The notes under the pieces were generated by a model, which was not told where the DNA came from, did no database searches, and worked only from the letters and a program-made list of their open reading frames with translations. From assembly GCA_020631855.1 (NCBI GenBank), contig JACKGU010000002.1, positions 22,569-86,568 on the forward strand: DNA of 64,000 bases, given 5' to 3'. Origin of the DNA: Candidatus Nomurabacteria bacterium. Lineage in GTDB: Bacteria; Patescibacteriota; WWE3; UBA101185; UBA10185. How positions within the stretch are numbered: the stretch's first letter is position 1; every line of letters begins with the position of its first letter. Positions 29,325-57,095 of this stretch are shown piece by piece. A program made the position numbers and the translations under genes.

Positions 29325-29357
29325 TTTTATTAAGGGGAAAATCACAAATACGCAGCG

Positions 29358-38875: not shown

Positions 38876-39274
38876 ATGAAAACACTTAATCAGAACATCC
38901 ACCCGGCAACTCTCCTTCCCATCGGAGTGATTACTGAAACCACTCAGGGCTCAGCAGTTGATAGTTATCTCTCTGATCGACCAGCTTACGACTCTGGTCT
39001 TATCGACATCGCCATCGGGAACCTCGGCGATCAAACATCCACCAAAGTGAAGATTGAAGAATCAGATGCTTCGGACTTCTCTTCAGGAGTAACTGTGGCT
39101 AAAGGCGGAGAGGAAGTTACCGTTGCGGCAGACACGGGCTACAAGATGCAGATTGAACGAAAGAAAAGATATTTCAGGGCAGTTGTAACTATCACTGCTG
39201 GGTCAACCCCATCTGCTGAAGTATATATCGGAGCATTACTGTGGGACGCGCAAAGACCGTTCCCGATTACTTAA
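38876..39274 (+). CDS. hypothetical phage structural-module protein
   Basis: 132 aa, first gene of same-strand structural block. Confidence 0.4.
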   Translation: MKTLNQNIHPATLLPIGVITETTQGSAVDSYLSDRPAYDSGLIDIAIGNLGDQTSTKVKIEESDASDFSSGVTVAKGGEEVTVAADTGYKMQIERKKRYFRAVVTITAGSTPSAEVYIGALLWDAQRPFPIT

Positions 39275-39282
39275 GGAAAACT

Positions 39283-39609
39283 ATGGAACCAGATCAAAAC
39301 AAACAACCAAAAGCACCAACACAGGATCCAAATCCTGCAGACAAAAAACCTGAAGCTGGTGCATCAGCTCAACCCAATGAAGCTCAAATGTGGGACAAGG
39401 TTGACTCTCTATTCACAGTCGCCCGTAACGCATTTTTTCAGGGCAATTCCACCTTTGTGGAGGTGCTGGATAGCTTAATCGCTACTCTGCAGGACATGAA
39501 GGAGAACGAGGTACGCCCTCTTGGTGGGTTAACTCAGAAAAACAAAATGAAGTTAGAAGACCAGGAACAGCCGGAAAAAGAAGAAGAACCGGCTAATCCG
39601 AACTTATAA
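39283..39609 (+). CDS. hypothetical phage protein (start adjusted to ATG with AAGGA SD)
   Basis: 108 aa; acidic, Pro-rich N-terminus. Confidence 0.4.
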   Translation: MEPDQNKQPKAPTQDPNPADKKPEAGASAQPNEAQMWDKVDSLFTVARNAFFQGNSTFVEVLDSLIATLQDMKENEVRPLGGLTQKNKMKLEDQEQPEKEEEPANPNL

Positions 39610-39613
39610 AACT

Positions 39614-39868
39614 ATGGCAAGCAGTATTGACGAAAAACTTGATCGAGGCCGAGCAGTTTGGGAAATGACTCAAACCGAAGGCTGGCAGATTATAAAAAGC
39701 CTAATCGACCAAGAGCTAGAGATTGAAAGTAAGGATTTATTGGACTGTCCCATAGAGGAAGACCTTGAACATAAACAAATGATCAAGGTCTACCGAAAAG
39801 TCTTGAGTATGGTCGACAGCGTTATTAAAGAGCGAGACGAAACTGCTCAGGATTTACGAAAGGAATGA
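39614..39868 (+). CDS. hypothetical phage protein
   Basis: 84 aa. Confidence 0.35.
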   Translation: MASSIDEKLDRGRAVWEMTQTEGWQIIKSLIDQELEIESKDLLDCPIEEDLEHKQMIKVYRKVLSMVDSVIKERDETAQDLRKE

Positions 39869-39872
39869 ATAT

Positions 39873-40757
39873 ATGGACGAAGAACAACTGAAACAAAAAG
39901 AACAAGAAGAATTACGAGCCCTACTCGATTCACCAGACGAGGAGGATTCTTCTGGTGAAGATAAAAAGAATAAGGATGTCACTCCACCTGCAGACAATCC
40001 CGATGGCAAAGAAACGAAACCGGAAGCCGGCAAAGATGACAAGCCAAACGAAGAAGGCTCTGAGGACGAAAAGAATAAAGACTCTAAAGATAAGGACAAA
40101 GATAAAGATAAAGACAGCAAAGATCGCTGGAACGGCAAAAGCCGTGAAGAGGTAATTAAAGAATACGAAACTTTGGAGAGTCGTGTCGATGCCTTAGAAA
40201 ATAAAGGTCCTGACGAAAAAGACCAATCGGAAGATGGCAAGACCAAAGACAAAGATGAAGAAAACTTAAATCTTCCTTCAGCAGATGAGCTTCAGAAGAT
40301 GACTCCTTCAGACTTTGCCAAATGGGTTATCTCTCGCATTGATGATGGAGTCAAAAAGACTATCGAAACACAGGAAAAGATCCGTGAGTCAGTTCGCAAA
40401 GAAATTGCAGAAGCAAAGAAAGAACATCCTCTACAGGATCCCGACTACCGCAAGATGGTGCAAACCATTATGGATGCAGCCAGTGCTAAAGGCACGACCG
40501 TCACTCTAAAAGAAGCGTGTGTTCAAGTCGATGCTTTCCTCGGCAAGCATAAGGAAAAAGATGAAGCCGAGAATAACGATGGATCTGAAGAATTATCAGA
40601 TGAAGAAAAGAGCCGGCTCAAAAAAGCCAAAGCTCAAGTTGAGAGTGGAGCGGGCGCTCCGACTCAGCCCGACGGCTCGGATGCCGAAACAAAACGCATC
40701 CAGAAAGCCCTCGCCGGAAGCGGGTCAAAAAGCTCCTTAGGAGGGTTAGGAATCTAA
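39873..40757 (+). CDS. putative capsid scaffolding protein
   Basis: 294 aa, highly charged K/D/E-rich with KDKDKDKD run and predicted coiled coils; immediately upstream of capsid-like gene. Confidence 0.5.
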   Translation: MDEEQLKQKEQEELRALLDSPDEEDSSGEDKKNKDVTPPADNPDGKETKPEAGKDDKPNEEGSEDEKNKDSKDKDKDKDKDSKDRWNGKSREEVIKEYETLESRVDALENKGPDEKDQSEDGKTKDKDEENLNLPSADELQKMTPSDFAKWVISRIDDGVKKTIETQEKIRESVRKEIAEAKKEHPLQDPDYRKMVQTIMDAASAKGTTVTLKEACVQVDAFLGKHKEKDEAENNDGSEELSDEEKSRLKKAKAQVESGAGAPTQPDGSDAETKRIQKALAGSGSKSSLGGLGI

Positions 40758-40796
40758 CTCCCTATGTTATTAAAAGAAGGGAGGTGAAAAAAATAT

Positions 40797-41966
40797 ATGC
40801 CAGCATCAGCAACAGGAATCAGAGGTTCAGGTAATTTAGGGGCAACCCAAAAGTATGACGTCGCGGACGTTGTATCGCTATTGGATGTCAACCGATATCC
40901 ATTGATGGCGATACTAACAAACGCTGGTAAAGATCCAGCAACCGGCGAGGGCGAAGCACTCAAAAAGAAAGAATCCACCGACCCAGAATTCAAATGGTTT
41001 GAAGATGAGTTTGGAAAGCGACAGCTAACAGGCTCAAGCACTGTCGATCCGGATGGCGGGAACTTAACTGTCACAGGGCAATCACAGTATCTTCAAGTCG
41101 GTGACATCATCTTGGTGTCTTCACAGAAATGGGTCTTTCAGGTAACCGCAATCGTAGACGCAAACACTGTAACAGTTGGTCCCGAACTCGGTGGAGCAAC
41201 AGGCTCGGCTGCATCAGCAGTCGGAGACGTCTGGCTCATTGGTAATGCCAATGAGGAAGGTGCAGGTCTGCGAGATATCAAATCGACCACCATTGCCGAA
41301 GTGTCCAACTATTGTCAGATCTTCAGAACTCCAGTCGGTATCACAGAAACTGCCCGAAATACTCAAGGATGGGTGAAAGAAAATGACTTTGACTATCAGA
41401 GGCGCAAAAAAGGTATTGAACACTATGTCGATATCGAACGCACATTTATCTTTGGTAAAAAAGGCATTCTTACTTCTGGAACTCACCCCAAGAGGTTCAC
41501 AAGCGGAATTCTAGGAAGGATTGCTACTTACGCCACTGCCAACGTTGACACCGAGTCTGAGTTTGACTCATGGCTCGAAAGTCTCTTTGCACACGGCAAC
41601 ACTGAAAAATATCTCTTTGCTTCAGCTTCGGTCGTTTCGATGATCAATGGCTGGGCAAAAGGAAAACTCCAAGTAGTCAACCCGACCAAGGCCTACGGAC
41701 TCAGAATCGTTACTTACGACTCTCCACACGGCACACTGCACATCATCAAGCATCCGCTCTTAATCGGAACAACCTACGGAAACTACGCCGTTGGGTTGGA
41801 CATGGAAGCTTTGACATACCGCTATCTGACAAATCGTGACACCAAGCTTATGACTAATCGTCAAAACCCTGGTGAAGATAGTCAGGTCGATGAGTACCTA
41901 ACCGAATGTGGACTGCAAATGGAGCAAGAGCAACGCCACGCCATTATGAGTATCGGCGCTCTTTAA
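40797..41966 (+). CDS. putative major capsid protein (HK97-fold-like)
   Basis: 389 aa; strong GGAGGTG SD; position after scaffold; overall resemblance to lambda gpE-like coat proteins (judged from memory). Confidence 0.45.
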   Translation: MPASATGIRGSGNLGATQKYDVADVVSLLDVNRYPLMAILTNAGKDPATGEGEALKKKESTDPEFKWFEDEFGKRQLTGSSTVDPDGGNLTVTGQSQYLQVGDIILVSSQKWVFQVTAIVDANTVTVGPELGGATGSAASAVGDVWLIGNANEEGAGLRDIKSTTIAEVSNYCQIFRTPVGITETARNTQGWVKENDFDYQRRKKGIEHYVDIERTFIFGKKGILTSGTHPKRFTSGILGRIATYATANVDTESEFDSWLESLFAHGNTEKYLFASASVVSMINGWAKGKLQVVNPTKAYGLRIVTYDSPHGTLHIIKHPLLIGTTYGNYAVGLDMEALTYRYLTNRDTKLMTNRQNPGEDSQVDEYLTECGLQMEQEQRHAIMSIGAL

Positions 41967-42127
41967 ACCTAAGCATTACTGAAACCTATGAATAAAAAAG
42001 CAACGCAACGAAAGTCACTACACACTTTCTTACTCAGTGTAGTCGCCTAGGAAGGGGTGAGCGTTATCACCCCTTCAACCCAATCTGGGGTTGTTAATCA
42101 GACAAAAAAGAAAGCGAGGTGAAAAAT

Positions 42128-42736
42128 ATGACTGAAGAAAGAAACACAAAATCCATAGAAGAAATGTCAATGGCAGAACTCTGGAGCGTTGCAAAACTGC
42201 TCGGTGTCTCCAAAGACGGCAAGCGAGATGAACTGATTGCACGCATTAAACAGGCTCAGGAGCAGCAAGGAGATACCCCTCCGGCATCAACACCTCAGCA
42301 ACCAAAAACTGCTAAGGCTCAAGCTCCAAAAGAAACTGTTTATATCTCTCGCTACTACGAACTCAAGTTAGTGATGTCACCTTCCTACTTAAAAGAAGTT
42401 GGTGGCAAAGTGCTCATTATTCGGGGTACTTACATTCAATTCCATGAGGGCGTGTATAAAACCACAAACCCTGAGGAAGTTGAATATCTCGATAATCACT
42501 CAAATTTCGGTAGCGTCTTTAGAAAAGTTGAAACCGCAGACCTAAAGGGCGGTAAGAGTGTTGATCAAATCTACCAAGATAAATTCAAAACTCTAGAAGA
42601 ACGCGAAAAAGAAATTGAGGCTCGAGAAGCAGCACTTCGCAAACGAGAGGTCGAAATGAGTGGTGCAGAAGAAGGGGCTACCCAACCTAAGGCAAAGTCT
42701 GGAATTAGAAGTACGGCAGACCAGCCGAAGTTTTAA
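42128..42736 (+). CDS. phage protein with N-terminal Rho_N/SAP-like motif
   Basis: about 202 aa from ATG with GAGGTGA SD; MAELWSVAKLLGVSKDGKRDELIARI resembles Rho N-terminal helix motif. Confidence 0.4.
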   Translation: MTEERNTKSIEEMSMAELWSVAKLLGVSKDGKRDELIARIKQAQEQQGDTPPASTPQQPKTAKAQAPKETVYISRYYELKLVMSPSYLKEVGGKVLIIRGTYIQFHEGVYKTTNPEEVEYLDNHSNFGSVFRKVETADLKGGKSVDQIYQDKFKTLEEREKEIEAREAALRKREVEMSGAEEGATQPKAKSGIRSTADQPKF

Positions 42737-42748
42737 AAGTAAAGATCT

Positions 42749-43045
42749 ATGGCTATACACAGTCGACCAACCTTTACGACTGCTCAGGTAACCATGACCA
42801 ACCAAGATGATTGGTATCCACTCCCTTCTATCAAAGTTGGTGAAGGTTGCGAAGTCGTTATTAAAAGCAGCGCAGATAACACTGCGCCTGTAAACGTGGC
42901 TCATAACGACGATGACAGTAAGGCTGCTCCTTTTGTTTTGGATAACGCAGGAGACAGCATTTCATTGTGCATCAAAGGGACAGAGCAAATTGTGGTCAGC
43001 TCCGGCGTTGCAGGTCAAGTTGTCGAACTTATAACCGAAAAGTAA
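42749..43045 (+). CDS. hypothetical phage protein
   Basis: 98 aa. Confidence 0.35.
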   Translation: MAIHSRPTFTTAQVTMTNQDDWYPLPSIKVGEGCEVVIKSSADNTAPVNVAHNDDDSKAAPFVLDNAGDSISLCIKGTEQIVVSSGVAGQVVELITEK

Positions 43046-43049
43046 ATCT

Positions 43050-43637
43050 ATGGCTAAATTTAAACCATCACAATCCAGTATTAAAAGAGTGTTTTCGAAA
43101 CTGAGAATCATCGTTAACACTGATGACGGTGAAGAAGATTACGATACAACCTGGTATCCCAATGGTTTTGCTAGTAACCAGATATCAATTGGTCATGATG
43201 GCACGGGTAGCAACGATGCAGGATTGAGATTTTTGCGGCCACTTTTACCAAATAACGTCAAGATCATTAAAGCAGTTCTGAGGGTCAAGTCTGCTGTCAA
43301 CTCCACAAAACGACCCGTCTTCGTCATTAAAGGCATTAAACAACCCAGCACTCTAAGCTTCGACTCAACTCACAGACCTTCTCAGCAACCCAAAACGACA
43401 GCTACTGTTGCGTGGGTACCGGGGGCAGATTGGGCAATTAATACCTGGTATGAAAGCCCTGACATTAAATCAATTATCCAGGAAATTATCGATCAGACGG
43501 AGTTTACCAATAAAGCAATTGGTATAGCGATTGAAGATAATGCCAGCCCTTCCAATAACTATGAAAACATATGGGACTTTAACAGTGGCAACGCGAACGC
43601 ACCACAACTCATATTGACGATCGATGCAAATTTGTAA
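43050..43637 (+). CDS. phage tail-associated protein, single copy of a ~190-aa domain repeated twice in 43913..45577
   Basis: 195 aa; DGEEDYDTTWYPNGF and YESPDIKSIIQEIID motifs shared with downstream gene. Confidence 0.45.
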   Translation: MAKFKPSQSSIKRVFSKLRIIVNTDDGEEDYDTTWYPNGFASNQISIGHDGTGSNDAGLRFLRPLLPNNVKIIKAVLRVKSAVNSTKRPVFVIKGIKQPSTLSFDSTHRPSQQPKTTATVAWVPGADWAINTWYESPDIKSIIQEIIDQTEFTNKAIGIAIEDNASPSNNYENIWDFNSGNANAPQLILTIDANL

Positions 43638-43650
43638 GGAGGTGAAAACT

Positions 43651-43962
43651 ATGCAAGAAAGCGATGTAGCACTACTAGAACAAATCATAAAAGCCATAGT
43701 CGCAAAGCCGGAAAAAGTTGTTATCGAAAGAAAAGTCGACGAAATGGGAGTCCTGTTATCAGTCCGACTAGATGACAAAGACGCGGGTGCCTTAATCGGC
43801 AGAGGCGGTGAAACCATAGCAGCAATCAGAAGAATTATGAAGCTCGTAGGGGTCAAAGCCAACGCACGAATAAACATCAAGTTAGATGTTCCGCGCAGAA
43901 GCAAAAACGACTATGAAAAACCAAGTATTGAAGATCAAAGTAACAATCCAAGAGAACTCTGA
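43651..43962 (+). CDS. KH-domain RNA-binding protein (KhpA/YlqC UPF0109-like)
   Basis: 103 aa from ATG with AAGGAGGTGA SD; VKAIVAKPEKVVIERKVDEMGVLLSVRLDDKDAGALIGRGGETIAAIRRIMKLVG contains GxxG KH signature. Confidence 0.5.
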   Translation: MQESDVALLEQIIKAIVAKPEKVVIERKVDEMGVLLSVRLDDKDAGALIGRGGETIAAIRRIMKLVGVKANARINIKLDVPRRSKNDYEKPSIEDQSNNPREL

Positions 43963-45577
43963 TGACGGCAAAGAAGCTGGGTCTTCGACTTGGAATAAAG
44001 ATGGTAATGCTTCAAACGTTATAACTTTGGGAAACTTCACCGGCGCTCAAACCGGTGCATTGCGATTTCGTGCTATCGATATTCCAAAGTTTTCAAAAGT
44101 TCTCCTAGCCAGGCTTCGTCTTCGCCCTGCAATCACCGATGAGACTGACTTTACAGTTAACCTGAAGATTAAGGGAATTAAAGAACCAGACCCCGCCCCA
44201 TTCAAACCAAACGGCTCAAATCGTCCATCCACTAGAACCAAAACAATCAACGCAGTCGATTGGGACATTATCAGAAAATGGAACGTCCACGAATGGGTTC
44301 AAACACCAAACTTGAATCTAATCGTGGAAGAACTCATTTCTCAAAGTGGCTGGAAGCCAGGTAATTCATTAGCCTTTGTCATTGAGGATGACGGTAGCCC
44401 AGCCGATCAATCAAAAACCTGTTATGACTCCAGCAAAGGTGAAGGTTACCAGGCAGAACTTGAAATTTACTATCTCCCTCAAGGATTGCATGAACAAGTC
44501 ACGATCGGATTAATCCAAGGCAACGATCGGGATGGTGAAGAAGATTATAAAAGCACTTGGTATCCAAATGGTTTTCAGAACAATATGACCACCTTTGGAG
44601 ATGATGGCAGTCTAGATCCAGAGCAATCACCCAACGATGCTGGTTTTATTTTCAGCCCGATTGCAATTCCTAAAAGAGCAGAAATTATTTCAGCAAAGAT
44701 ACTTGTAACCAGTCCTTTCCAAAACAACGGCATGCCAAATGTTTTAATTAAAGGTCTGGCTGAAGATGATGCTGCAGTCTTTGTCTCCAATGGCTCAAAT
44801 CGTCCTTCGCTACGCAATAAGACGAACGCAAAGGTTCAGTGGAACTTAGGACATGCCGAAGCAGGTGTGCTTATAGGAGATCACTGGACTGCAGAAAGTG
44901 CCTACGAATCACCAGAGCTCAAAGATATTATTCAAGAAATTGTTGACCGCCCAGGTTGGGCAGAAAGCAAGCTTGGACTTGTGCTGGAGAACTATAACTC
45001 CGGACACGGAAACACAAAATACATTTGGGACTATAACCAAGATTCAGGTAAATACGCTCCTCGACTACTTATAGCCTGGACAAAAGAACGCAGAGTAACC
45101 GCCAGAGACAAAGACGTGGAGACTTTCAATAAAGCTAACTACCCCGAGTTTATTATTGTCCACCATTCAGCCACTCCTCGGGATAACACCCGCTTTGAAA
45201 CGATTAAGAAGGCTCACATCGGCTTTGGTTGGGATGATATCGGATATCACAAATGGATAGCCGGAGCCCTTGACGGAGATGGTGTGTTGATCTTAGGCCG
45301 ACCAGACAATGTTATCGGTGCTCACTGCGACAGCAACAAAATGAATTACCGCTCATTAGGAGTAGTTTTGTGCGGCAGCTTCCATAACAGTGAAACCCCT
45401 ACCTCCGCCCAACTGACAACTTTGCAGAAAGTTCTAGACGACTTGCGCCAAGAAAGAAGTATTCCAAAAGAAAGAGTTTTCGGTCATGGGGAAGTTCCTG
45501 AATCAGCTACAGATTGTCCAGGCAATGCCATCTTGCCCTATGTCCAGAGATATAGAGCGACCGGAAGTTTGCAATAA
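43913..45577 (+). CDS. tail protein with two paralogous receptor-binding-like domains and C-terminal N-acetylmuramoyl-L-alanine amidase (Amidase_2/PGRP) domain
   Basis: 554 aa from MKNQV (start chosen by homology to 43050 paralog); C-terminal FIIVHHSATPRDN...GWDDIGYHKWI...GAHCDSNKMNYRSLGVVLCG matches Amidase_2. Confidence 0.6.
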   Translation: MKNQVLKIKVTIQENSDDGKEAGSSTWNKDGNASNVITLGNFTGAQTGALRFRAIDIPKFSKVLLARLRLRPAITDETDFTVNLKIKGIKEPDPAPFKPNGSNRPSTRTKTINAVDWDIIRKWNVHEWVQTPNLNLIVEELISQSGWKPGNSLAFVIEDDGSPADQSKTCYDSSKGEGYQAELEIYYLPQGLHEQVTIGLIQGNDRDGEEDYKSTWYPNGFQNNMTTFGDDGSLDPEQSPNDAGFIFSPIAIPKRAEIISAKILVTSPFQNNGMPNVLIKGLAEDDAAVFVSNGSNRPSLRNKTNAKVQWNLGHAEAGVLIGDHWTAESAYESPELKDIIQEIVDRPGWAESKLGLVLENYNSGHGNTKYIWDYNQDSGKYAPRLLIAWTKERRVTARDKDVETFNKANYPEFIIVHHSATPRDNTRFETIKKAHIGFGWDDIGYHKWIAGALDGDGVLILGRPDNVIGAHCDSNKMNYRSLGVVLCGSFHNSETPTSAQLTTLQKVLDDLRQERSIPKERVFGHGEVPESATDCPGNAILPYVQRYRATGSLQ

Positions 45578-45582
45578 AACAT

Positions 45583-46287
45583 ATGCAATTACAAGAATTT
45601 AGACAAGACTTAAACGCCAGAATGACCGCCTCTAAAGTAAGCGGTTTCTGGAAAGATGCTGATAAAGATCGCTGGATTAACAAAGCGATAGTTCGGGCAT
45701 GCAATTTTGCTCGTTTTAAGTTCCTAAGCAAACACGCCAGTCAACTCACAGAACTAAATCCTGATGGCTCAGGTAAAGAATCGTACTTCCTTCCTTTCGA
45801 CTTTAAGCCAGGTGGCATGGTTTTCCTCTCTGTGGATGGCGAGGAGTATCACAAAGCTTCCGAGAACCAATATCTAAGCCGTAAATCAGATAACAAGATA
45901 GCTCCCACTTTTCATCCCTCACTCGACATAGTTCACCCATCTCTTCACACAGACTGGCGATGGCAAAAAATCTACGCCGCAATCGGAGATCAATATTTTA
46001 TAGATCCTCCGGCTGATGTTGCTGGCAAAGTAATCGACCTCTTTTATAAACGCCGCCCAGTCCGACTCGTTGAAGAAACTGATGAACCAATTACTCCAGA
46101 GGAACTTGATGAACCGATTTTGAAACTGGCATTAGCAACCTGTCTAGCAAAAGAGCCAGGGAGAAAAAACGAAGCAGAAAAAGAAGTTATTGAAGCTCAC
46201 GCCTTATTACAACAAACCAAAGATCGCGAGGACGAGGAACCATCGGCCGTCTTCGTGGGGCAGGCAAAAAGCACCCGATGGTCATAA
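45583..46287 (+). CDS. hypothetical phage protein
   Basis: 234 aa. Confidence 0.4.
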   Translation: MQLQEFRQDLNARMTASKVSGFWKDADKDRWINKAIVRACNFARFKFLSKHASQLTELNPDGSGKESYFLPFDFKPGGMVFLSVDGEEYHKASENQYLSRKSDNKIAPTFHPSLDIVHPSLHTDWRWQKIYAAIGDQYFIDPPADVAGKVIDLFYKRRPVRLVEETDEPITPEELDEPILKLALATCLAKEPGRKNEAEKEVIEAHALLQQTKDREDEEPSAVFVGQAKSTRWS

Positions 46288-46291
46288 ATAT

Positions 46292-47737: not shown

Positions 47738-47741
47738 ATCT

Positions 47742-49076: not shown

Positions 49077-49290
49077 ATTAGATAGGTCCGATTTAAAAGA
49101 ACTGCAATTGCGAAAGCAGATGATTAAGCAGCATCAGCTGACAATCCAAGCGCTTGATTCGCAATTGGTCATGTGGCTTCTCGGTAAGTTTTTCAAATAC
49201 GGCTTGGATAGTCAGAAAGAATACAACTTCGATGCTGTAACCGGTGAAATAACCGAAGTCATACAGTCCCAGAAAGGAGGTGGCTCCTAA
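49057..49290 (+). CDS. small phage protein
   Basis: 77 aa from in-frame ATG; overlaps preceding gene by 20 nt. Confidence 0.3.
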   Translation: MSKKQTKLDRSDLKELQLRKQMIKQHQLTIQALDSQLVMWLLGKFFKYGLDSQKEYNFDAVTGEITEVIQSQKGGGS

Positions 49291-50354
49291 TGGCGACAAA
49301 ACAATACGGCGGTTGGTATTGGCAACCTGATCAAAATAAGGCTCTCAGATGGTGGGGTACTGATTCTTCTGGCAAAGACATTTACACAACCGGCGATGAA
49401 CCAGGCAAGCAACAATCGGTCAGCAATTTAAGTAGCGGTCTTTCTCAGGTTGATGGTTCTAGTATCTTGGGTTTTGATGTAGGAACGCTCAATACTCGAT
49501 TTCAGGACACTTATAAACAAGCTCAAGATTTATCATCAGATCTCGAAACCTACCAAACAAGGCGTTACGACGAAGAATATGGCAAAGCAGAACTTGGCAA
49601 ACTCAAAGATACCATTAGCTCTTTGGATACAAGTATCGCAAGTGAAAAAAATGTTCGTGATGAATCAGTCAGCAAGATTCGCAAAAACCCAGGCTATTCG
49701 GCAGCCACTATAACAGGTGAATCCGGAGAGGTTCAAAGACTTGCCAATGCAAAAATTGGCAATCTCATTGAAGAACGAAATGCAAAAGCCGAAGATTACA
49801 ACGCCCGACTTGGAGAAATAACTCGTAAAGTAACCTCAGAAACTCAAGGCAAAGAAGCCAAACTTAATAACCTTCGGTATGATTTGCAATTTTTAGGAGG
49901 ACTGCTTAATACCTACAATCAAATTCGATCTTCAGAATTATCCTCTGCCAAAGAAGATGAACGTTGGGAAAAAGAGTTTGAGCTAAAACTATATGATTCC
50001 CAGACGAGCAGAATGAAGACCGGCGATGGTGGTGGAACTTATGCTAAACAACAGGTTAAAGATGCTTTTGGCAATGTTGTTGGATATTTCGATGCCACCT
50101 CAGGTAAAACCACCCTTTATGAGGAACCCTCCAGTAAATCACAGGTAACCACTGTAAACGAAAGCGATCTGCGAAATGAAATCAGATCTGCGTGGAAACA
50201 AGGATTCACGGCTGACCAACTCAAGACAAATCTATCAGGAGTCGCAACAGATAAAGGTAAGAATGCCACTCAAATAATCGATGAAGAATGGCAGTTAAAG
50301 ACCCAGCCAGGTGTGATGGGATTCTTAAGACGCTTATTTACACCTGGAGTTTAA
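49290..50354 (+). CDS. coiled-coil phage protein
   Basis: 354 aa; AAAGGAGGTGG SD. Confidence 0.45.
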   Translation: MATKQYGGWYWQPDQNKALRWWGTDSSGKDIYTTGDEPGKQQSVSNLSSGLSQVDGSSILGFDVGTLNTRFQDTYKQAQDLSSDLETYQTRRYDEEYGKAELGKLKDTISSLDTSIASEKNVRDESVSKIRKNPGYSAATITGESGEVQRLANAKIGNLIEERNAKAEDYNARLGEITRKVTSETQGKEAKLNNLRYDLQFLGGLLNTYNQIRSSELSSAKEDERWEKEFELKLYDSQTSRMKTGDGGGTYAKQQVKDAFGNVVGYFDATSGKTTLYEEPSSKSQVTTVNESDLRNEIRSAWKQGFTADQLKTNLSGVATDKGKNATQIIDEEWQLKTQPGVMGFLRRLFTPGV

Positions 50355-53300
50355 TGCATATGGACAATTTTTTATCACAAATTAAGAAAAACATAACCTC
50401 GTCAATTCAAAATACGAGTCAAACTCTTGGTGGTATTTTTGGAAAGTCGCAACAAGCAGCTTCTTCTCTGGTACGTTCTGGCTCTGAAAAAATTCAAGAC
50501 ATACTAAGACCTCTGGAAAAACTAAAGCCTGAACAATACGACATCGCCATTCCAGGTCCCACAACCGGCTCCTACAAACCATTCAAAAATCTGTATGTAG
50601 AAACTGCTGCCCAAACACTTGGATTGGGTGCCAGAGATACAGATGTACTTGAGCGATTGCCAAGTGCAACAATCGGAGCCTTAAAGGGTGCCGGAGATGG
50701 TCTTGCCCAAGCCTTAACTTTTGGCTGGTGGAATCCGGAAATAGAGTACGCCAATGACATCGAAAAAATGGCCGGTGACATGACGGAGGTAGAGTTTAAT
50801 GTTTTAGGAACAATAGGAACTTTTGTGGTAGGAGGCGGTCTAGTTCAAGGAGCACTCAAAGGTGTTCCACTTCTTGGAAGAGTTGCTACAGTTGCTCCAA
50901 GAACATTTAGCCTACTTTCGAATGGACTTACTTTTGCAGGGTTAACCCAACTGCAAAAAGAAGAATCCTACAAAGATGCTCAACACCGAGCCAAAGACTT
51001 TGTGAGTGATTTTGCTCTCGGCGGAGCCTTTTCCATTGCTGGCATGAAACCTTCATTTCTAAAATCCTCGGCAATTATTGGACCCGCAACATATGTGACC
51101 TCACTTATCAAAGGTGACTCAAACGAAGACGCTCTCAAAAACACCGCAGCGATGATTGGACTCCATTCATTAAACTTTGCGGTGGCGAAATATCTTCCTA
51201 ACAAATCGGCAGTTGAGAGCCAAATAGAAAAAGCGGCCAGTGAGCAGTTGAAGATAACCAAGAAACAAGCTCTTGAGTACCTCGGCGTAAACGAAAAGGC
51301 TACTGCAGAGCAAGTGAAGCAAGCGTGGAAAAACAAAGTAGTTGGTATTACCAAAGAGTTTCCCGCTCAAGCAAAGCAAACACCACAAGAGATGGGGCAA
51401 TTCAATCAAGCTTGGAATACAGCCAACAGAGCTTACGAGTTCCTGGCAAAAGTAAGCAATCCAACCGGATATACCGGCAAGTCCTTCAGACAGGAGTTTC
51501 AAGATCTTTACTATGACCTCTGGAAAAATGTTCCTGACAAAAGGGCTATTGTTATCAGAGCGGTTCGCAACATGCCTGCGGGACTCTCAATCAGAGCCAC
51601 ATTAAACGAGACTCAAAGAAGCGAAATTGTGACCGCACTTGGAGGGCAAGAAGCCAAAACTCGACTCGGACGAGTTGCAGAACTAACTGATGCTGATTTA
51701 GTCACTGTAGCAATGGAAAACAAGATACCTGTTACTCCTTTCAAAGCAAATCCACCCGAGTTAAGTGCAGAAACATATAAACATGGCACGCCTGTCCCCG
51801 AGAAGATCTTAAAAGAAGGATTTAGCTTGGCGGAGTCTGGAAAAACAAGCGGTTATGGTGGAGTTATGGGTAAGGGTGTTTATTTGGATCTTACCCCAGG
51901 TGGTGAAGGAGCAAAATTATACGGAACAGTAATTGATACAAAGATTAAAAAAGGATTAAAACTTTTCAGTTGGTCTGGCAAAATTGACGAACTTTACTCT
52001 GAAGCCACGAAGTATGGGGATCCTGAAAAGATTACTGAAGTTCTACAAAAGAAGGGATATGACGGTGTTAAAGGCCTAAACCAAATGGTCATTTTTGACC
52101 CACAAAATGTAGTACCAATAGTTGATGGCAAGCCTTCCATTCCGCTAACCACCTCTTTCTCTGTTTTAGATCAAAAAGCGGCCAAGGCTGCAGAAATACG
52201 AGACAAATACCGAGTGCCTGGCGAAACCGAGCTAGAAAAACTTGAACGTACTAACAAGGATGTATCACAGACAACACTCATTCAAAAACGGCGCCAAGGT
52301 CAAATAATTGCACCAGATCAACCGCGAGTGGATGAGGTGAAAGATCCACCGCCTGGTAGTCCTCCTAGACCTCCCCAGGAAACACCTATTGGTTCTGATT
52401 CACCACCTCCTGAAGGGAGTGCTTTAAGCCAGATCGATGCGATGGTTGGAAAGCTTTCGCCTGCTGCTAATCTTCTGGACAAAGCTAAAAAAACAATTCA
52501 GGTTTTCCCGCGCCTTTTTACTGACCGCTTTGCTCCTATTCGGGAGTTTGAAAACAAAGTAAGTAAACTGCAGGGCAAGCCCATCGATATCAATTCCAGT
52601 CCTTATGTGGGCGCCCGAATGTATGCTGGACGCTTCGGCATTGTAGAAGGAAGTTTCCGAGATTTGTATACCGCACTTCAACCTGTCAGAAAATTGCGGG
52701 CAGACTTTACACGCTATGTACTTGCCCAGAGAACAGCAGAAAGAGCCGCCAGAGGTGTTGAAAATCCTCTTGAGGTCACTCAAGAAACTGCAGAGAAGGC
52801 ACTCCAAGAACTAAAAACTAAAGTTGGTGACAAAGCATTTAAAACATTTGAACAAGTTGGTAGTGGAATGCAAAATTGGGCAGTTAAAGCAATTCTCGAA
52901 CCCATGAGAGACTCTGGAATTTTAAGCAATAAAGCCTTCAACGCTGTTGTTGAGAAAAACAAAAACTGGCTTCCATTCCATGTTTTGGAATACATACCCA
53001 CGCTAGAAGAAGCAGACAAGATGGCAATCGGCTCCGAAACATTTTCCGTAAGTAAGCAAGGTGTTGTGAGTGCTCTTGAAGGAACAGACAAGGTCATTCG
53101 GGATCCATTTATCTCCGTAATAGACAACCTCACAAAAGCAGTTAGCCTTGTTGAACGAAATAAAGTAGCCCTGAAATTGGTAGAGCTTCGTAAAACTCAC
53201 CCTGATGCAACCAAAGGGTTGATCAGATTCTTACCCACCAAAGAAAATGCTCCGCAAGATTGGGAATCAATTAGCGTATTTATCGGTGGCAAGGTAACGC

Positions 53301-54958
53301 GCTGGGCTGTACCAAAAGAATTATCTGAAGCAATGCACGCCATGAGTCCGGCAGAGACAGGTTTGATGGGTAAGTTAGTAATGATGTCTTCAAAAGCATT
53401 TAAAGCAGGTACGACTACGCTCTATTTCCCATTTACGCTCTCCAATGCAGTCCGTGACTATCAAACCGCAACGATGGTTTCCAAATATGGCTTTAATCCT
53501 GCAGTATGGCTATCAGGATTTAAAGACGGCTTCCGCTCGGCGTTTAAATGGGAATCCAAAGCCTATGACGAATTTATGAGAAATCAAGGTGGCTATGGGA
53601 GCTACATTGAATCAACCAAAGGTTTGTCAGTTGCCTCTGATCAATTATTCCGACCCAGATGGATGGAAAGAACGAAAGCTGTTCTTAACCCTTTTGAGTT
53701 AATAGGCAACTTCTCTGAAGCCATAGAACTTGCTCCGAGACTTGGAATCTATAAAAAAGCTCTCAGTAAAGGAGCCAGTCCTTTGGAAGCAGCATTTGAA
53801 GCACGAAACGTGACAGTCGACTTTGCCAAAGCAGGAGTTGAAGCCCGATTGATTAATATGTGGGTTCCGTTTGTAAATGCACGATGGCAAGGTTTACTAA
53901 ATGTCACCCGTGTCATGAAGGACAATCCTGTCCGAACTGCAGCCAGAGCTCTTGCCATGACTGTTCTTCCTGGAATTGCCACTTACTTTTATAACGTCAT
54001 GAACCATGAAGACCTCTGGGAAGATATTCCTCAGTGGGCAAAAGACACCTACTTCATCATTATTGTCGGAGAAGAAAAAGATGAAGATGGTAATAAAGTT
54101 CCAAAGGTAATCCAAATCCCTAAAGGTGACGTTGGAACGATTTTCTTCAACCCTCTGATGTACTCGTTTGAATATGTTCGTAAACAAGAACCTCAAAACC
54201 TCTTCAAGCTCGGTCTAGAGTGGATGAGTCAGTTAGCTCCAGTTCCATTTACAAGAGATGGTGAGTTATCCGCTCAAGCCTTCTTCTCTGGAGCTCTGCC
54301 ACCTATTATGCGTACTCCTCTGGAAATAGCGACAAATACAAACTTCTTTACCGGATTTCCAGTGGTCCCAAGAAAACTAGAAAAAGTCGCCCCATCAGAA
54401 CAATACGACAGTAGAACACCTGATTTAGCAATCACCATCGGTCGTGCCTTGGGAGTAAGTCCTATGAAGTTGACCCACGCAGTCTATGGATTAACCGGAA
54501 GCTTGGCTAGAGAGCTACTTAGCCCTGCAGATGTCCTAGGTCTGACAATGGATCGTTTTTACCGAACTCAGGGCGGTGAGAAGCAACGTAGAGCCTGGGA
54601 CATCAAATATGAAGCAGAAGTAGGCTACAACACCACTCGTCTGCAAATGAAGAAGCTCATAGAGGCTGGTGACATGCAAGGCGCCCAGCAAATGGCACTG
54701 AGGTGGAACGAAGAAGCAGAAAAACTGATCCCACAGGTTGTTCCGCTTTTAATGAAAGATGATCCCAAAGAAGCAACATTGTTTCAAAGTAGCATCACTT
54801 TTAATGCGAGCGATTTACAACGCTTATTAAAGACAACTCTTCCTGGCGGTATTCCTCAAGAAACTGACAGTGATAAGCAGAAATCAACACTAACTCCATT
54901 GAAGAATGGGTCCAATTCCACGGACAATCAGAGTATTAAGAGTTTGATTTATAGATAA
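50354..54958 (+). CDS. giant (1534 aa) virion-associated protein (tape-measure/internal ejection protein-like)
   Basis: Start at ATG overlapping upstream stop (TAATG); size and position between fibre and lysis genes; no enzymatic motif recognised. Confidence 0.5.
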   Translation: MHMDNFLSQIKKNITSSIQNTSQTLGGIFGKSQQAASSLVRSGSEKIQDILRPLEKLKPEQYDIAIPGPTTGSYKPFKNLYVETAAQTLGLGARDTDVLERLPSATIGALKGAGDGLAQALTFGWWNPEIEYANDIEKMAGDMTEVEFNVLGTIGTFVVGGGLVQGALKGVPLLGRVATVAPRTFSLLSNGLTFAGLTQLQKEESYKDAQHRAKDFVSDFALGGAFSIAGMKPSFLKSSAIIGPATYVTSLIKGDSNEDALKNTAAMIGLHSLNFAVAKYLPNKSAVESQIEKAASEQLKITKKQALEYLGVNEKATAEQVKQAWKNKVVGITKEFPAQAKQTPQEMGQFNQAWNTANRAYEFLAKVSNPTGYTGKSFRQEFQDLYYDLWKNVPDKRAIVIRAVRNMPAGLSIRATLNETQRSEIVTALGGQEAKTRLGRVAELTDADLVTVAMENKIPVTPFKANPPELSAETYKHGTPVPEKILKEGFSLAESGKTSGYGGVMGKGVYLDLTPGGEGAKLYGTVIDTKIKKGLKLFSWSGKIDELYSEATKYGDPEKITEVLQKKGYDGVKGLNQMVIFDPQNVVPIVDGKPSIPLTTSFSVLDQKAAKAAEIRDKYRVPGETELEKLERTNKDVSQTTLIQKRRQGQIIAPDQPRVDEVKDPPPGSPPRPPQETPIGSDSPPPEGSALSQIDAMVGKLSPAANLLDKAKKTIQVFPRLFTDRFAPIREFENKVSKLQGKPIDINSSPYVGARMYAGRFGIVEGSFRDLYTALQPVRKLRADFTRYVLAQRTAERAARGVENPLEVTQETAEKALQELKTKVGDKAFKTFEQVGSGMQNWAVKAILEPMRDSGILSNKAFNAVVEKNKNWLPFHVLEYIPTLEEADKMAIGSETFSVSKQGVVSALEGTDKVIRDPFISVIDNLTKAVSLVERNKVALKLVELRKTHPDATKGLIRFLPTKENAPQDWESISVFIGGKVTRWAVPKELSEAMHAMSPAETGLMGKLVMMSSKAFKAGTTTLYFPFTLSNAVRDYQTATMVSKYGFNPAVWLSGFKDGFRSAFKWESKAYDEFMRNQGGYGSYIESTKGLSVASDQLFRPRWMERTKAVLNPFELIGNFSEAIELAPRLGIYKKALSKGASPLEAAFEARNVTVDFAKAGVEARLINMWVPFVNARWQGLLNVTRVMKDNPVRTAARALAMTVLPGIATYFYNVMNHEDLWEDIPQWAKDTYFIIIVGEEKDEDGNKVPKVIQIPKGDVGTIFFNPLMYSFEYVRKQEPQNLFKLGLEWMSQLAPVPFTRDGELSAQAFFSGALPPIMRTPLEIATNTNFFTGFPVVPRKLEKVAPSEQYDSRTPDLAITIGRALGVSPMKLTHAVYGLTGSLARELLSPADVLGLTMDRFYRTQGGEKQRRAWDIKYEAEVGYNTTRLQMKKLIEAGDMQGAQQMALRWNEEAEKLIPQVVPLLMKDDPKEATLFQSSITFNASDLQRLLKTTLPGGIPQETDSDKQKSTLTPLKNGSNSTDNQSIKSLIYR

Positions 54959-54964
54959 ACAGTT

Positions 54965-56032
54965 ATGGCAGACATCATACGACCAATAGAACCATTTGAA
55001 TTGACTCAAGGTTTTGGAGAAAACCCAGCTGACTATGCTCGATTCGGACTCAAAGGACATAATGGTTGGGATTTAAAAACAAAGTTTCCCGATACTCCAC
55101 AGGGCTTTAGAAATATTCTTTCATCTTGGGCATCTAAATTTTATTCTCAGGGCAACGAGGGGAACGATGGCTTTGGTCTTTACTTTGAGGTAATCGTCCA
55201 ACTTTATAACACCTACAAGCTGACCTATGCTCACTGCAAATCCATTGAAGGCTTTGAAAACAAGAATGAGGGTGACTCATTGGCCATTAGTGACAACACC
55301 GGCAATAGCACTGGCAGTCATTTACACCTTACCGTAAAGCGTGGACAACTTTCCAACGGAAAGTTTGCCAGCGACAACTATAACAATGGCTATTTTGGAG
55401 CCATCAATCCTCAAGAGTTCTTTGATGAACTCAGAAAGTATAAGAAAGAAAAAGGCACAACTTCTGCTCCTGAGGGATGTTTGGTGCCAAATACACCTGA
55501 ATGGCGAACTAAGTACGAGCAAGTAGTCTCTTCGGCAACCAAATGGGCCGATACGCTTAAGATTTTTGAGATCACTGACGACCCCAACACTACCCCCAGC
55601 GACAGAATTAAGAGTGTAGTCGGAGGGTATAAAAGTCGTGAAACTGACCTATCTAACAAGCTAAACGAGAAGTCAGCCGATCTCGACAAAGCCAACCAGG
55701 AGATTAGCAACCGGGTGGAACAAGTTGGCAGACTCGAAAAGGATTTGCTAGAGAAGGAAAAGTACCACAAAGCCCTGATCGACGCATTAAATAAACAGCT
55801 CAAAAATGGTTCAGATGCGCTCCCCTTGGCTCAGGCTCGCATAGGGGTGCTGGAGGGCGAGCTAGATGAAGCTAATAAAGCCAAGGGCAGAGCTCTCAAC
55901 GATGCACAGCAATACAAAGGTCAATTTGAGGCGTGCCAAAAGGGTACTCTGGTTCCGACTCCTCAATTAATTTTCTCCCTGGTTATTCAGTATTTCAGCA
56001 ATAAATTACCCAAAGGAGGTGAAAAACTATGA
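54965..56032 (+). CDS. M23-family peptidase (lysin) with C-terminal coiled-coil region
   Basis: 355 aa; GHNGWD (HxxxD) and GSHLHLTV (HxH) M23 metal-binding motifs. Confidence 0.55.
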   Translation: MADIIRPIEPFELTQGFGENPADYARFGLKGHNGWDLKTKFPDTPQGFRNILSSWASKFYSQGNEGNDGFGLYFEVIVQLYNTYKLTYAHCKSIEGFENKNEGDSLAISDNTGNSTGSHLHLTVKRGQLSNGKFASDNYNNGYFGAINPQEFFDELRKYKKEKGTTSAPEGCLVPNTPEWRTKYEQVVSSATKWADTLKIFEITDDPNTTPSDRIKSVVGGYKSRETDLSNKLNEKSADLDKANQEISNRVEQVGRLEKDLLEKEKYHKALIDALNKQLKNGSDALPLAQARIGVLEGELDEANKAKGRALNDAQQYKGQFEACQKGTLVPTPQLIFSLVIQYFSNKLPKGGEKL

Positions 56033-56250
56033 TAGTTACCAGCCCTAAATATCAACTGACATTTGATGACCTTAAGAAACTTGGTACAGGTTTAGGAATT
56101 GCACTACTCGGAGCAGCTCTAACATACTTGACAGAACAGATTCCCAATATCGACTTCGGTCAATGGACTCCGATTGTTGTAGCTTTCTGGTCAGTTGTTG
56201 TCAACACAGTCAGAAAATGGTTAACAGCAAGTGAATATATTGAGAACTAA
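56029..56250 (+). CDS. holin-like small membrane protein
   Basis: 73 aa; two hydrophobic segments (LGIALLGAALTYL, PIVVAFWSVVV); AAAGGAGGTGA SD; follows lysin. Confidence 0.45.
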   Translation: MIVTSPKYQLTFDDLKKLGTGLGIALLGAALTYLTEQIPNIDFGQWTPIVVAFWSVVVNTVRKWLTASEYIEN

Positions 56251-56256
56251 TGTCCT

Positions 56257-56505
56257 ATGAGTGATAAACCAGTCAATACCATCAATATGCTCGAACGTGT
56301 TGCCAAACTCGAAGAACGAGTAGATGGCGGGTTTGGATTTGTAAATAAAGAGTTAAAGGAAATAAAAGAAAATCATTTACACCAATTACAAGCAGATGTT
56401 AGTGACTTGAAAATAAAAGTGAGTACTTTGGCGGTGAAGATTAGCATCGCTGCTGCTGTGGCAACGATAGTTGGAGATTTTATTTTCCGTCTTCTTTTTC
56501 GGTAG
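56257..56505 (+). CDS. small coiled-coil protein with C-terminal TM (holin/spanin-like)
   Basis: 82 aa; C-terminal ISIAAAVATIVGDFIF TM. Confidence 0.35.
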   Translation: MSDKPVNTINMLERVAKLEERVDGGFGFVNKELKEIKENHLHQLQADVSDLKIKVSTLAVKISIAAAVATIVGDFIFRLLFR

Positions 56506-56794
56506 GCTCTTTAACCTTCATCTCTTTTTTAGCAAGATCCGCTTCCTGCTTATGGTTGAAGACAAGATTATTCAAATCATTGGTGAAACCCTTGAAAGAA
56601 TTAGCATTCAGAACATGGAAGTACCCAGACTCAGGATTACCAGTAAAGATTAGAGTATCACCAGGATTAATGTTCTGAGCTTTACGCAATTTAGCAGGTA
56701 TCACAATTTGACCGCGTGAACTTACCGGGGCGGTCCCGAACACTGTCATTTTTGCTTGTGGCTTCTTTTTTGAGCCTTTATCTTTCATAGTCAT
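56480..56794 (-). CDS. AbrB/MazE/SpoVT-type DNA-binding protein
   Basis: 104 aa; GQIVIPAKLRKAQNINPGDTL matches swapped-hairpin AbrB-domain pattern. Confidence 0.5.
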   Translation of the reverse strand: MTMKDKGSKKKPQAKMTVFGTAPVSSRGQIVIPAKLRKAQNINPGDTLIFTGNPESGYFHVLNANSFKGFTNDLNNLVFNHKQEADLAKKEMKVKEPTEKEDGK

Positions 56795-57095
56795 ATAAAA
56801 CGGTAACTACTCCACCGAGAAATTGTTCCTACAATAAAGAATAATCTTTAATGTAGGTTACGGGTATTATACAATACATCGATCTCGAGAAGTTCGCAAC
56901 ATCAGAAAGTGACAGAAACAACCTTGTATCTACTAGGGTAAAAGAAGTAAAATAAGGATGTTATTGATAGGCGGCGGCGAAAGATTCAATGCCAATATGT
57001 TCTTTAAGAAAACTAAGCTGGAGTTCCAAACTAGGCTCGATAAGAGGTCTTAGGTTCGAGCAAAGTACGGTGACCAGCTCCAAATTCTCCTACAT

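Follow-up and report, generated by a model that had tools for sequence, protein, structure and literature searches.

The element in the window, by which the whole analysed stretch of 64,000 nucleotides is meant, is very probably a defective prophage with an intact late operon, which lacks terminase and portal because one recent deletion of ~26-29 kb took them out. The prophage is inserted at the 3' end of a tRNA-Gly gene by a large serine recombinase, in the genome of a member of the Patescibacteria (CPR). The initial annotation had described the region 38876-56505 as a morphogenesis and lysis module with no recognisable terminase or portal and had left open whether it belongs to a defective prophage, a helper-dependent particle or a divergent phage with unrecognised packaging proteins. 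The first of these readings proved correct, with a microhomology deletion fusing the stump of a DUF3800 gene to the stump of a portal gene. The element carries the marks of a defective prophage, namely a defined attachment site that is found unoccupied in another allele of the population, truncated genes at the breakpoint as a scar, and the loss of virion-essential functions that are kept in its relatives (the rebuilt relatives cA and cB, and others).

The prophage boundaries are resolved by three alleles without insert (L121, L122 and L126), which define attB, attL and attR, the empty site reading tRNA...CCCGCTCCA|AATTCTCC. The attL core, GCTCCA, is formed by the last 6 nt of the tRNA gene (23603-23608) and the prophage occupies 23609-57082 (33,474 bp), with a sibling copy departing from the window directly after 57082. 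A direct-repeat search for att sites yielded nothing useful because the core is merely 6 bp long. The reconstructed attP junction (…GACCAGCTCCA|TATCGGACTGC…) had no exact match in metagenome contigs, and thus there is no direct evidence for a free or circular form of exactly this phage. The integrase contains Resolvase, Recombinase and Zn_ribbon_recom domains and matches the integrase family phrog_95 (E 1e-65); its last ~22 codons run antisense through tRNA-Gly, and in the rebuilt attP form it would comprise 553 aa. The adjoining 85-aa ORF has no match above threshold in Pfam or PHROGs, lies beside the integrase also in L033, and is annotated with 81 aa in the assemblies L114-L119. At the opposite end, the MazE/AbrB-like gene falls within the stretch common to relatives. 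An Rfam scan revealed tRNAs only. All features are listed in Table 1.

Table 1. Features of the prophage and its attachment sites, with positions in the window
Feature	Position	Strand	Basis
tRNA-Gly(TCC)	23535..23608	+	ARAGORN, Rfam
Large serine recombinase (integrase), intact, 535 aa	23541..25148	-	Pfam, PHROGs
Conserved 85-aa ORF adjoining integrase	25178..25435	-	Conservation
Remainder of DUF3800 gene truncated by the deletion (3' end, final 42 codons)	25843..25968	-	tblastn
Remnant of portal gene with the C-terminal ~196 of its ~629 residues (197-aa ORF)	25958..26551	+	Comparison with relatives
Deletion junction with 9-bp microhomology TGCTTTTGG, shared by the two parental sequences	25962..25970	.	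Homology limits
83-aa membrane-like ORF and HEPN_LA2681 protein (26851-28413)	26598..28413	+	Pfam, E 4e-33
HTH_3 regulator in cargo region	28613..28843	-	Pfam, E 8e-18
Diversity-generating retroelement (DGR): Avd 28986-29324, TR 29358-29476, RT 29670-30770, target 30839-35473 (1544 aa) with VR 31932-32050	28986..35473	+	Pfam bAvd, RVT_1; phrog Avd, RT
MacB-type ABC ATPase (35477-36277), FtsX/MacB_PCD permease (36274-38304), 103-aa ORF	35477..38690	+	Pfam
Three small conserved head-module ORFs (132, 122, 84 aa)	38876..39868	+	phrog_5707
Presumed scaffold, acidic, low-complexity, immediately 5' of MCP	39873..40757	+	Position, composition
Major capsid protein (MCP), SU10_MCP family	40797..41966	+	Pfam, PHROG, PDB
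Five ORFs separating capsid from adaptor: Rho_N/SAP-like, 98-aa ORF, 195-aa ORF, KH-domain protein, 563-aa protein	42119..45577	+	Pfam, PHROGs, repeat search
Head-to-tail adaptor (SU10_adaptor)	45583..46287	+	PF24175, E 1.6e-9, above threshold
Nozzle/tail-hub protein (beta-propeller), 481 aa	46292..47737	+	AF2 model, Foldseek
Tail fibre with repeats (47742-49076) and small downstream ORF (48976-49290)	47742..49290	+	PHROGs
Presumed internal/ejection proteins: 354-aa protein, ~1534-1556-aa LPD38 protein (50288/50354-54958), M23-like peptidase (54965-56032)	49290..56032	+	Position, size, podovirus analogy
Pair of small membrane-type proteins (73, 82 aa), presumed to act in lysis as holin/spanin-like proteins	56029..56505	+	Hydropathy, position
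MazE/AbrB-like 104-aa gene, final prophage gene	56480..56794	-	Precomputed Pfam MazE_antitoxin
attR core GCTCCA	57077..57082	.	Empty-site comparison

The scar of the deletion lies between the integrase and the cargo genes. Homology to relatives on the integrase side stops at 25970 and homology on the portal side begins at 25962, with the two gene stumps abutting at 25961-25968. The DUF3800 stump corresponds to aa 170-211 of the 211-aa protein of an intact relative with 100% identity (tblastn), the family being assigned by Pfam on the full-length relative. The portal stump, whose first codons derive from the junction, matches nothing in Pfam or PHROGs and was identified solely through relatives, being 55% identical to aa 466-654 of the L008 portal and 92% identical to aa 434-629 of the cA portal. 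This remnant, which lies outside the 19-gene block, had been overlooked. The reported absence within the block stands: neither TerL nor portal was detected in 38876-56505 using Pfam and PHROGs. Using the TerL of relatives as tblastn query, with their portal as a further query, no TerL was found in the whole 64 kb. The replication module is likewise absent, as had been stated.

The interval equivalent to the deletion measures 28.6 kb in cA and 26.1 kb in cB, and the lost content is read from these relatives, which share ~81-90% (cA) and 77-84% (cB) nucleotide identity with the prophage over shared DNA. It comprises the ImmA/repressor module with early genes, one candidate for a replication gene, two methylase genes, the TerS-like gene and TerL, plus portal aa 1 to ~433, two thirds of that protein. 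Apart from the two stumps, none of the other 21 ORFs of this interval has a match inside the prophage 23609-57082, and one of these 21 gave just weak matches, with 25-31% identity, to host genes located around 1-2.8 kb. One illegitimate recombination between two 9-bp TGCTTTTGG repeats, with its ends within the DUF3800 gene and at portal codon ~433, accounts for this loss of ~26-29 kb. Assembly of a portal vertex would no longer be possible, nor would the cutting and packaging of DNA, and the repressor module and candidate replication genes are gone. No infectious particles would be expected because of these combined losses, and the late genes are probably silent now. Judged from the gene content of this prophage of an uncultured host, the element would be defective and inert, save that the integrase might still excise it and that its cargo might be expressed, i.e. 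the HEPN protein, the DGR with its target and the ABC exporter.

L115, L116, L117 and L118, as well as L138, read across the junction with 99.98-100% identity, and the datasets carrying it are SRR17907852, SRR14234113, ERZ795048 (SPAdes) and ERZ27257475 (MEGAHIT). Its recurrence in four other datasets, which were assembled with different programs, demonstrates, at the level of assembled sequence, that the junction is real. Exact searches for it gave no match in IMG/VR and, among JGI/ENA metagenome contigs, the above ERZ795048 contig as the sole match. A false joining of two parts of an intact prophage in the MAG contig could be envisaged, as intact and deleted alleles seem to co-occur and are able to confuse assemblers. 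However, the joint shares just 9 bp, far below assembler k-mer sizes, and the identical junction recurs in the above four datasets, SPAdes and MEGAHIT assemblies included, so that such an artefact is highly improbable. No evidence against the deletion itself was found.

The intact relatives show what the window has lost. A search for the same block in viral and other contigs, as had been proposed, retrieved relatives with a recognisable TerL on over 50 contigs of IMG/VR and GTDB, of Microgenomates/Patescibacteria origin, and homologues of the 17 ORFs 38876 to 50354 were all present, in 16-50 related loci. This family is one of widespread temperate podovirus-like phages of Microgenomates-group bacteria, with intact genomes of about 54-62 kb as proviruses. 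Starting from the integrase end, the intact order is integrase, DUF3800, ImmA-like peptidase and HTH repressor, early and candidate replication genes, two DNA methylases, TerS-like gene, TerL, variable cargo, portal, variable cargo, head genes, adaptor, nozzle and fibre, large internal proteins and lysis genes. The portal of relatives has 620-690 aa, lies directly 5' of the homologue of ORF 38876, and its family profile matches the solved portals 9k09_D (E 4e-6) and 9lbz_A (E 4e-5). The family has two cargo slots bearing defence genes and a DGR.

Another of the earlier readings was a divergent phage with terminase and portal hidden among the 19 ORFs, 46292-47737 and 45583-46287 being the candidates; several ORFs of the block have no family match in Pfam or PHROGs, as a complete phage of high divergence might show. 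This reading is refuted and retains next to no probability. In relatives, TerL is readily recognised as GpA_ATPase (E 1e-18 to 1e-20, e.g. 3e-20 and 3e-18), and both TerL and portal occur in addition to the block homologues and do not replace them. Furthermore, the window itself contains the portal stump, and neither candidate is a packaging protein: 45583-46287 encodes an SU10-type head-to-tail adaptor, and 46292-47737 a nozzle resembling P22 gp10 and T7 gp12. Recognition of the nozzle required structure prediction, because a single-sequence search of the 481-aa protein against PDB gave no match and its family profile retrieved only generic beta-propellers among PDB sequences. The AF2 model (pLDDT 91, pTM 0.90) has the PhiM1 nozzle, P22 gp10, Sf6, T7 gp12 and VP1 as best Foldseek matches. 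The reported lack of a protease in the block was also accurate, but this is no sign of a defect, because intact relatives lack a prohead protease too.

The late block was correctly described as 19 plus-strand ORFs forming a phage head, tail and lysis module, and several of its gene assignments were substantiated. The capsid-like protein belongs to SU10_MCP (PF17236, E 2e-44) and to the PHROG 'major head protein', and the proposed check of its fold was positive, with PDB matches to 9in6_M (E 1e-19) and 7z45_A. A KhpA-type KH domain (43624-43962, E 2e-15), a C-terminal Amidase_2 domain in 43886-45577 (E 1e-16), a fibre matching 22 PHROG families, mostly tail fibre, and a 1534-aa protein matching LPD38 and phrog_9854 (E 8e-62) were all confirmed. 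The 563-aa Amidase_2 protein contains two copies of the 195-aa-type domain (repeat D2) in addition to the amidase. Other assignments held in part. Strong GGAGGTGA-type Shine-Dalgarno sequences precede only ~4 of the 19 genes, most others being stop/start coupled; the Rho_N/SAP matches exist (E about 1e-3) but fall under Pfam thresholds, the likely start of this gene being 42128; and the M23 match scores 24.4 bits, under the Pfam cut-off of 28.7. The putative scaffold, conserved in 50 loci and without a match in Pfam or PHROGs, is acidic and of low complexity, its role being presumed from this composition and its place before the MCP. Similarly, the two presumed holins match no Pfam or PHROGs family and are proposed from position and composition, with a clear transmembrane segment in the 82-aa protein alone. 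The products of 49290-56032 are presumed, by analogy with podoviruses, to have an internal or ejection role. Homologues of the three small head-module ORFs occur at 32-44 loci, and the first of them, which in relatives lies directly 3' of the portal, is 50% identical to L008:7723-8154. All 19 late ORFs equal in length those of three relatives with full portal and TerL, and the operon thus appears complete and uncorrupted. Recoding of the genetic code as a means of hiding genes was dismissed, as there are no large non-coding gaps in the block and relatives read normally in table 11.

The undecayed block fits a very recent event, and fits maintenance by selection as well. Sibling sequences show that the deletion is recent on the measure of nucleotide divergence. 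The sibling L130, covered only from 57 nt 5' of its portal onwards, encodes a full 629-aa portal, and 8,118 nt of its late region match the window with 100.000% identity. L102 is 100% identical over 2.9 kb, yet runs on into more portal sequence, and L100 (99.72% over 6.4 kb) likewise extends further into the portal. In addition, the Logan contigs of SRR14234040 are interrupted precisely at the junction, with L114 ending at 25970 and L103 starting at 25941.

Such siblings could in principle provide portal, terminase and regulation in trans to a satellite-like element contributing its own capsid and tail genes. The integrase, both att cores and 19/19 late ORFs are intact, a near-identical full-portal sibling occurs in related samples, and the SRR14234040 break fits the presence of both alleles in one sample. 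However, this helper-dependent reading lacks support and is very unlikely. The breakpoint lies in a 9-bp microhomology and interrupts two ORFs at arbitrary codons, and the TerS-like/TerL region, the usual place of pac/cos, is wholly gone with its surrounding DNA, so that a helper would probably find no specific packaging signal. The M23 protein is single-copy in the source MAG, which thus gives no sign of a resident helper. The junctions of other decayed copies (L042, L056, L057) differ, which means that the architecture is not conserved, and the existence of a full-portal sibling, identical over the compared stretches, argues against an evolved architecture. Phage satellites (PICI, cf-PICI, P4-like) bring their own TerS or a helper-matching cos/pac and/or capsid-size redirection. 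No satellite packaging-hijack or capsid-redirection family was found here in Pfam or PHROGs, nor a homologue of the TerS-like gene, TerL or their flanking DNA, and the nearest relatives are full-length phages.

The cargo between the portal stump and the late block suggests a further explanation. The slot 26598-28413 varies among relatives, and the stretch 35477-38690 is colinear with the intact relative cA and therefore part of the phage genome. The DGR looks active from its repeats: TR and VR (119 nt) are 87% identical, 14 of their 15 mismatches fall on TR adenines, and VR lies in the N-terminal third of a membrane-anchored, fn3-rich target followed by the ABC exporter. A grounded prophage might thus be kept for its HEPN protein and its DGR-diversified surface protein with exporter, the loss of lytic and packaging functions being tolerated or favoured. 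The portal tail is likewise retained by independent copies that have decayed in other genomes of Patescibacteria, and one of them, L056, retains the HEPN gene and an RT with upstream genes lost. However, lysis and structural genes are kept here too, which such retention does not require, and the deletion is so young, with 0 substitutions over several kb, that selection cannot be read here; this explanation is considered unlikely. A slightly more doubtful extension is that integrase-proximal-to-portal deletions recurrently ground phages of the CPR, leaving cargo and a late operon that siblings may complement, i.e. a nascent helper-dependent element. If true, grounding deletions would remove immunity, packaging and candidate replication genes and leave HEPN, DGR with target, and ABC exporter. 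Deletion-derived defectiveness remains the ordinary answer to a module without terminase and portal, which is hence not to be pursued as a new kind of particle. With att sites, empty site, intact sibling and scar, the locus provides a cleanly resolved case of polymorphic and decaying prophages in uncultured members of the CPR, a group for which the biology of phages is so far sparsely documented.

Cryptic prophages arising by internal deletion are well known, e.g. the remnants DLP12, Rac and Qin of E. coli K-12. The present element shares with them an integrase with att sites, partial gene sets, truncated breakpoint genes and, presumably, a lack of infectious particles. Unlike them, it results from a single very recent deletion, its 19-gene late operon is fully intact, and a full-portal sibling, 100% identical over the compared late region, persists in the population. 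Gene transfer agents keep terminase and portal, and tailocins consist of tail genes without head genes; here TerL and a complete portal are missing, capsid genes are present and the tail is of the short podovirus type. The prototype of phage-borne DGRs is that of Bordetella phage BPP-1, with which the present one shares a phage-carried Avd-TR-RT cassette and adenine-specific TR-to-VR differences, but its target is not a tail fibre and resides in a cargo slot.

The virion genes resemble those of SU10/VP1-type podoviruses (PDB 7z45, 9in6, 8zkk) in the HK97-fold MCP family (E 2e-44), the short-tail adaptor family (E 1.6e-9) and the nozzle fold (8zkk_O, TM 0.59/0.55), and the portal of relatives weakly matches SU10_portal. 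They differ in that MCP identity to any cultured phage is <=30%, the phage is temperate with a serine integrase and a CPR host, relatives have a TerL of the lambda gpA type, and the present copy lacks TerL and retains only the C-terminal ~196 residues of the dodecameric portal. Phages and prophages of Roizmanbacteria fall into Podoviridae and Siphoviridae clades on a capsid tree (Chen et al. 2019, PMC6509639), and are similarly temperate, associated with Microgenomates-group CPR hosts and recovered from metagenomes. Compared by description, the ~27-kb Roizmanbacteria prophage of that study differs in having a tape-measure and a major tail protein and is hence siphovirus-like.

The 19 consecutive plus-strand ORFs that the initial annotation had described as a phage-like morphogenesis and lysis block are present, and its failure to recognize a terminase or portal among them agrees with Pfam and PHROGs searches of the block, while tblastn revealed neither TerL nor a portal N-terminus in the entire 64 kb. 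Among its ORFs, remote-homology searches identified a capsid match and an adaptor, and a structure comparison identified a nozzle. The presumed capsid protein is an SU10-family major capsid protein, and the KH, Amidase_2, fibre and large virion protein labels were also borne out, the last by LPD38 and phrog_9854 matches (E 8e-62) in a protein of about 1540 aa. The Rho_N/SAP and M23 labels correspond to existing, yet sub-threshold, matches, and "scaffold" and "holin" have position and composition as their sole basis. Strong GGAGGTGA-type Shine-Dalgarno sequences precede only about four genes, most others being stop/start coupled. The KhpA-type gene lies midway through the structural operon and is kept in 18 related loci. 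A repeated domain of about 190 aa (DNA repeat D2) links a 195-aa protein (43050-43637; 336 aa in two relatives) with the 563-aa amidase protein, where it falls in the N-terminal two thirds. Immediately ahead of the first late gene, where the cargo gives way to the late operon, there is a hairpin with a 20-bp stem and, after it, a T-run.

Using the capsid protein as a query, 32 related IMG/VR loci were found, and relatives inspected upstream carry a TerL gene (517-547 aa; GpA_ATPase, E 3e-20 to 3e-18) followed by a 620-690-aa gene ending just before the homologue of the gene at 38876. The profile of this 620-690-aa family matches solved portal proteins (9k09_D, E 4e-6; 9lbz_A, E 4e-5), and one member weakly matches SU10_portal. 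Because of these matches, the packaging proteins of this phage family are recognizable and additional to homologues of the block genes, which refutes the proposal of a complete, divergent phage with unrecognizable packaging proteins. Both ORFs suggested as packaging candidates are instead tail parts: one is an SU10-type adaptor, and the other is predicted to be nozzle/tail-hub-like, since its structure model (pLDDT 91, pTM 0.90) resembles the podovirus proteins of PhiM1, P22 (gp10), Sf6, T7 (gp12) and VP1. A protease was likewise rightly reported as not recognized; the inspected relatives likewise show none from portal to scaffold, so that lacking one is usual in this family.

The missing genes can be traced to a scar at 25962-25970. 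In contigs that also carry the integrase, homology to the window begins near 23523 and ends exactly at 25970, portal-side homology starts at 25962, and TGCTTTTGG is present in both parental sequences at the junction point. Two gene stumps flank this point, namely the end of a DUF3800 gene and an overlooked portal stump, with 55% identity to aa 466-654 of the L008 portal, from a related locus, and 92% to aa 434-629 of that of the closest rebuilt relative. In two intact relatives rebuilt from overlapping loci, the missing interval measures 28.6 kb (cA, the closest) and 26.1 kb (cB), and only two of its 23 ORFs, the stumps, match the prophage region. A single microhomology-mediated deletion took out most of the portal along with the packaging genes, the candidate replication genes and the immunity module; still present are the integrase with both att cores, the cargo, and a late operon that is intact. 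In the TerL-portal interval, a second cargo slot is occupied by the ECF-like sigma factor together with a cassette, defence-like in appearance, that encodes proteins of 1094, 1063 and 948 aa.

The window was assigned to contig JACKGV010000006.1 of GCA_020631795.1, a CPR MAG with the label Nomurabacteria/WWE3. A misjoin of two prophage parts during assembly is excluded, since the same junction is spanned at 99.98-100% identity in independent assemblies (SRR17907852; SRR14234113; ERZ795048, made with SPAdes; ERZ27257475, made with MEGAHIT) and a k-mer chimera would need more than its nine shared bases. One related contig (L102) follows the window at 100% identity starting at 25962 but has 264 nt more portal, and a sibling prophage encodes a full 629-aa portal (L100; 99.72% identity over 6.4 kb), with a late region (L130) 100.000% identical over 8,118 nt. 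All 19 late ORFs equal in length those of three relatives with full portal and TerL. Given this near-identity and these equal lengths, the deletion is very recent, and the downstream genes are free of decay.

With two stumps at the junction and TerL and the portal N-terminus lost, the element is a defective prophage, one of the three readings originally offered. That it is instead a satellite-like, helper-dependent particle is unlikely, as the cut points are arbitrary, the packaging signal region is not kept and the source MAG shows no sign of a helper copy. Lacking portal, TerS and TerL, the defective prophage should be unable to form DNA-filled particles, and its late operon is probably silent, since the early region is lost and late expression would lyse the cell.

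Features of the defective prophage and its flanks, and of the deleted interval in its closest rebuilt relative (cA)
Feature	Position	Strand	Evidence or remark
Late operon	38876-56505	+	19 ORFs
Major capsid protein	40797-41966	+	PF17236 E 2e-44; PHROG "major head protein"; PDB 9in6_M E 1e-19
KhpA-type KH-domain (RNA-binding) protein	43624-43962	+	family search
563-aa amidase protein	43886-45577	+	C-terminal Amidase_2
SU10-type adaptor	45583-46287	+	PF24175 E 1.6e-9
Predicted nozzle/tail-hub-like protein	46292-47737	+	structure model
Tail fibre	47742-49076	+	many tail-fibre PHROGs
Portal stump, 197-aa ORF	25958-26551	+	C-terminal third of family portal
DUF3800 stump, last 42 codons	25843-25968, left of junction	-	100% identity
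Hairpin and T-run	38805-38852
HEPN_LA2681	26851-28413
DGR with target	28986-35473		Avd, TR, RT
TR	29358-29476
VR	31932-32050
MacB-type ABC ATPase and permease	35477-38304
Host-flank element, about 120 nt	14437-14558; 21855-21976 (minus orientation); 58388-58509; 63640-63758		75-88% identity
Rest of DUF3800 gene	cA, deleted interval
ImmA/IrrE-type peptidase and HTH repressor	cA, deleted interval
Early genes	cA, deleted interval
C5 methylase and ParB-N6/N4 methylase	cA, deleted interval
TerS-like gene	cA, deleted interval
TerL	cA, deleted interval
ECF-like sigma factor with membrane proteins	cA, deleted interval
Large reverse-strand defence-like cassette	cA, deleted interval
First ~433 portal codons	cA, deleted interval

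Empty-site alleles (L121, L122, L126) read tRNA-Gly…CCCGCTCCA followed directly by AATTCTCC, the window attL reads …CCCGCTCCA followed by TATCGG and attR …GACCAGCTCCA followed by AATTCTCC, and the prophage therefore spans 23609-57082 (33,474 bp). The integrase ORF terminates in host DNA, antisense to tRNA-Gly (23541-23608 compared with 57015-57082), giving 535 aa, and the rebuilt circular attP form would give 553 aa with a different tail of about 40 aa; members of its cluster have 535-559 aa. The full-portal sibling (L100, L130, L121; ENA ERZ27248703 contig k141_1090326) occupies a different chromosomal site, with a GATase and an aaRS in its right flank, and on the right it terminates at the identical GCTCCA. 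An empty tRNA-Gly site lies about 72 kb away on that contig. Hence, two or more attB sites seem to be targeted by the serine integrase within a single host population.

The DGR, ABC transporter and HEPN gene are phage cargo, colinear with relatives, and not host DNA between two separate elements. The slot between portal and head genes is a variable hot spot, with HEPN_LA2681 in the window, where the closest relative (cA 33437-41072) has 7.6 kb of other large genes and another (L005 3676-8243) a reverse-strand cassette. The DGR is complete, TR and VR differing at 15 positions of which 14 are TR adenines. Its target, a protein of 1544 aa, is fn3-rich and membrane-anchored, and has the VR (aa ~365-404) within the N-terminal third instead of at the C-terminus; the ABC genes follow it, and the whole set sits in a phage cargo slot. 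In the host flanks, an intergenic element occurring four times has no Rfam match, and its RNAalifold stems are weak with almost no covariation.

Homologues of the portal tail occur in Levy-, Woese-, Davies-, Ames-, Roizman-, Gottesman- and Pacebacteria MAGs, the majority as full portals, and in the four that are 58-60% identical to the stump TerL, too, is present about 5 kb upstream. Three loci bear other truncations, with junctions unlike that of the window: a portal tail alone (L042 9902-10594), integrase aa 299-533 fused to the portal tail (L056 9343-10338), and integrase, DUF3800 and portal fragments together (L057 1664-2184). These leftovers of the phage family, truncated independently in other Patescibacteria genomes, are a case of ordinary prophage decay. 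Among cultured phages, the nearest major capsid protein shares only 30% identity with that of the window, and descriptions of Microgenomates phages, and of a prophage, date back to 2019 (PMC6509639).
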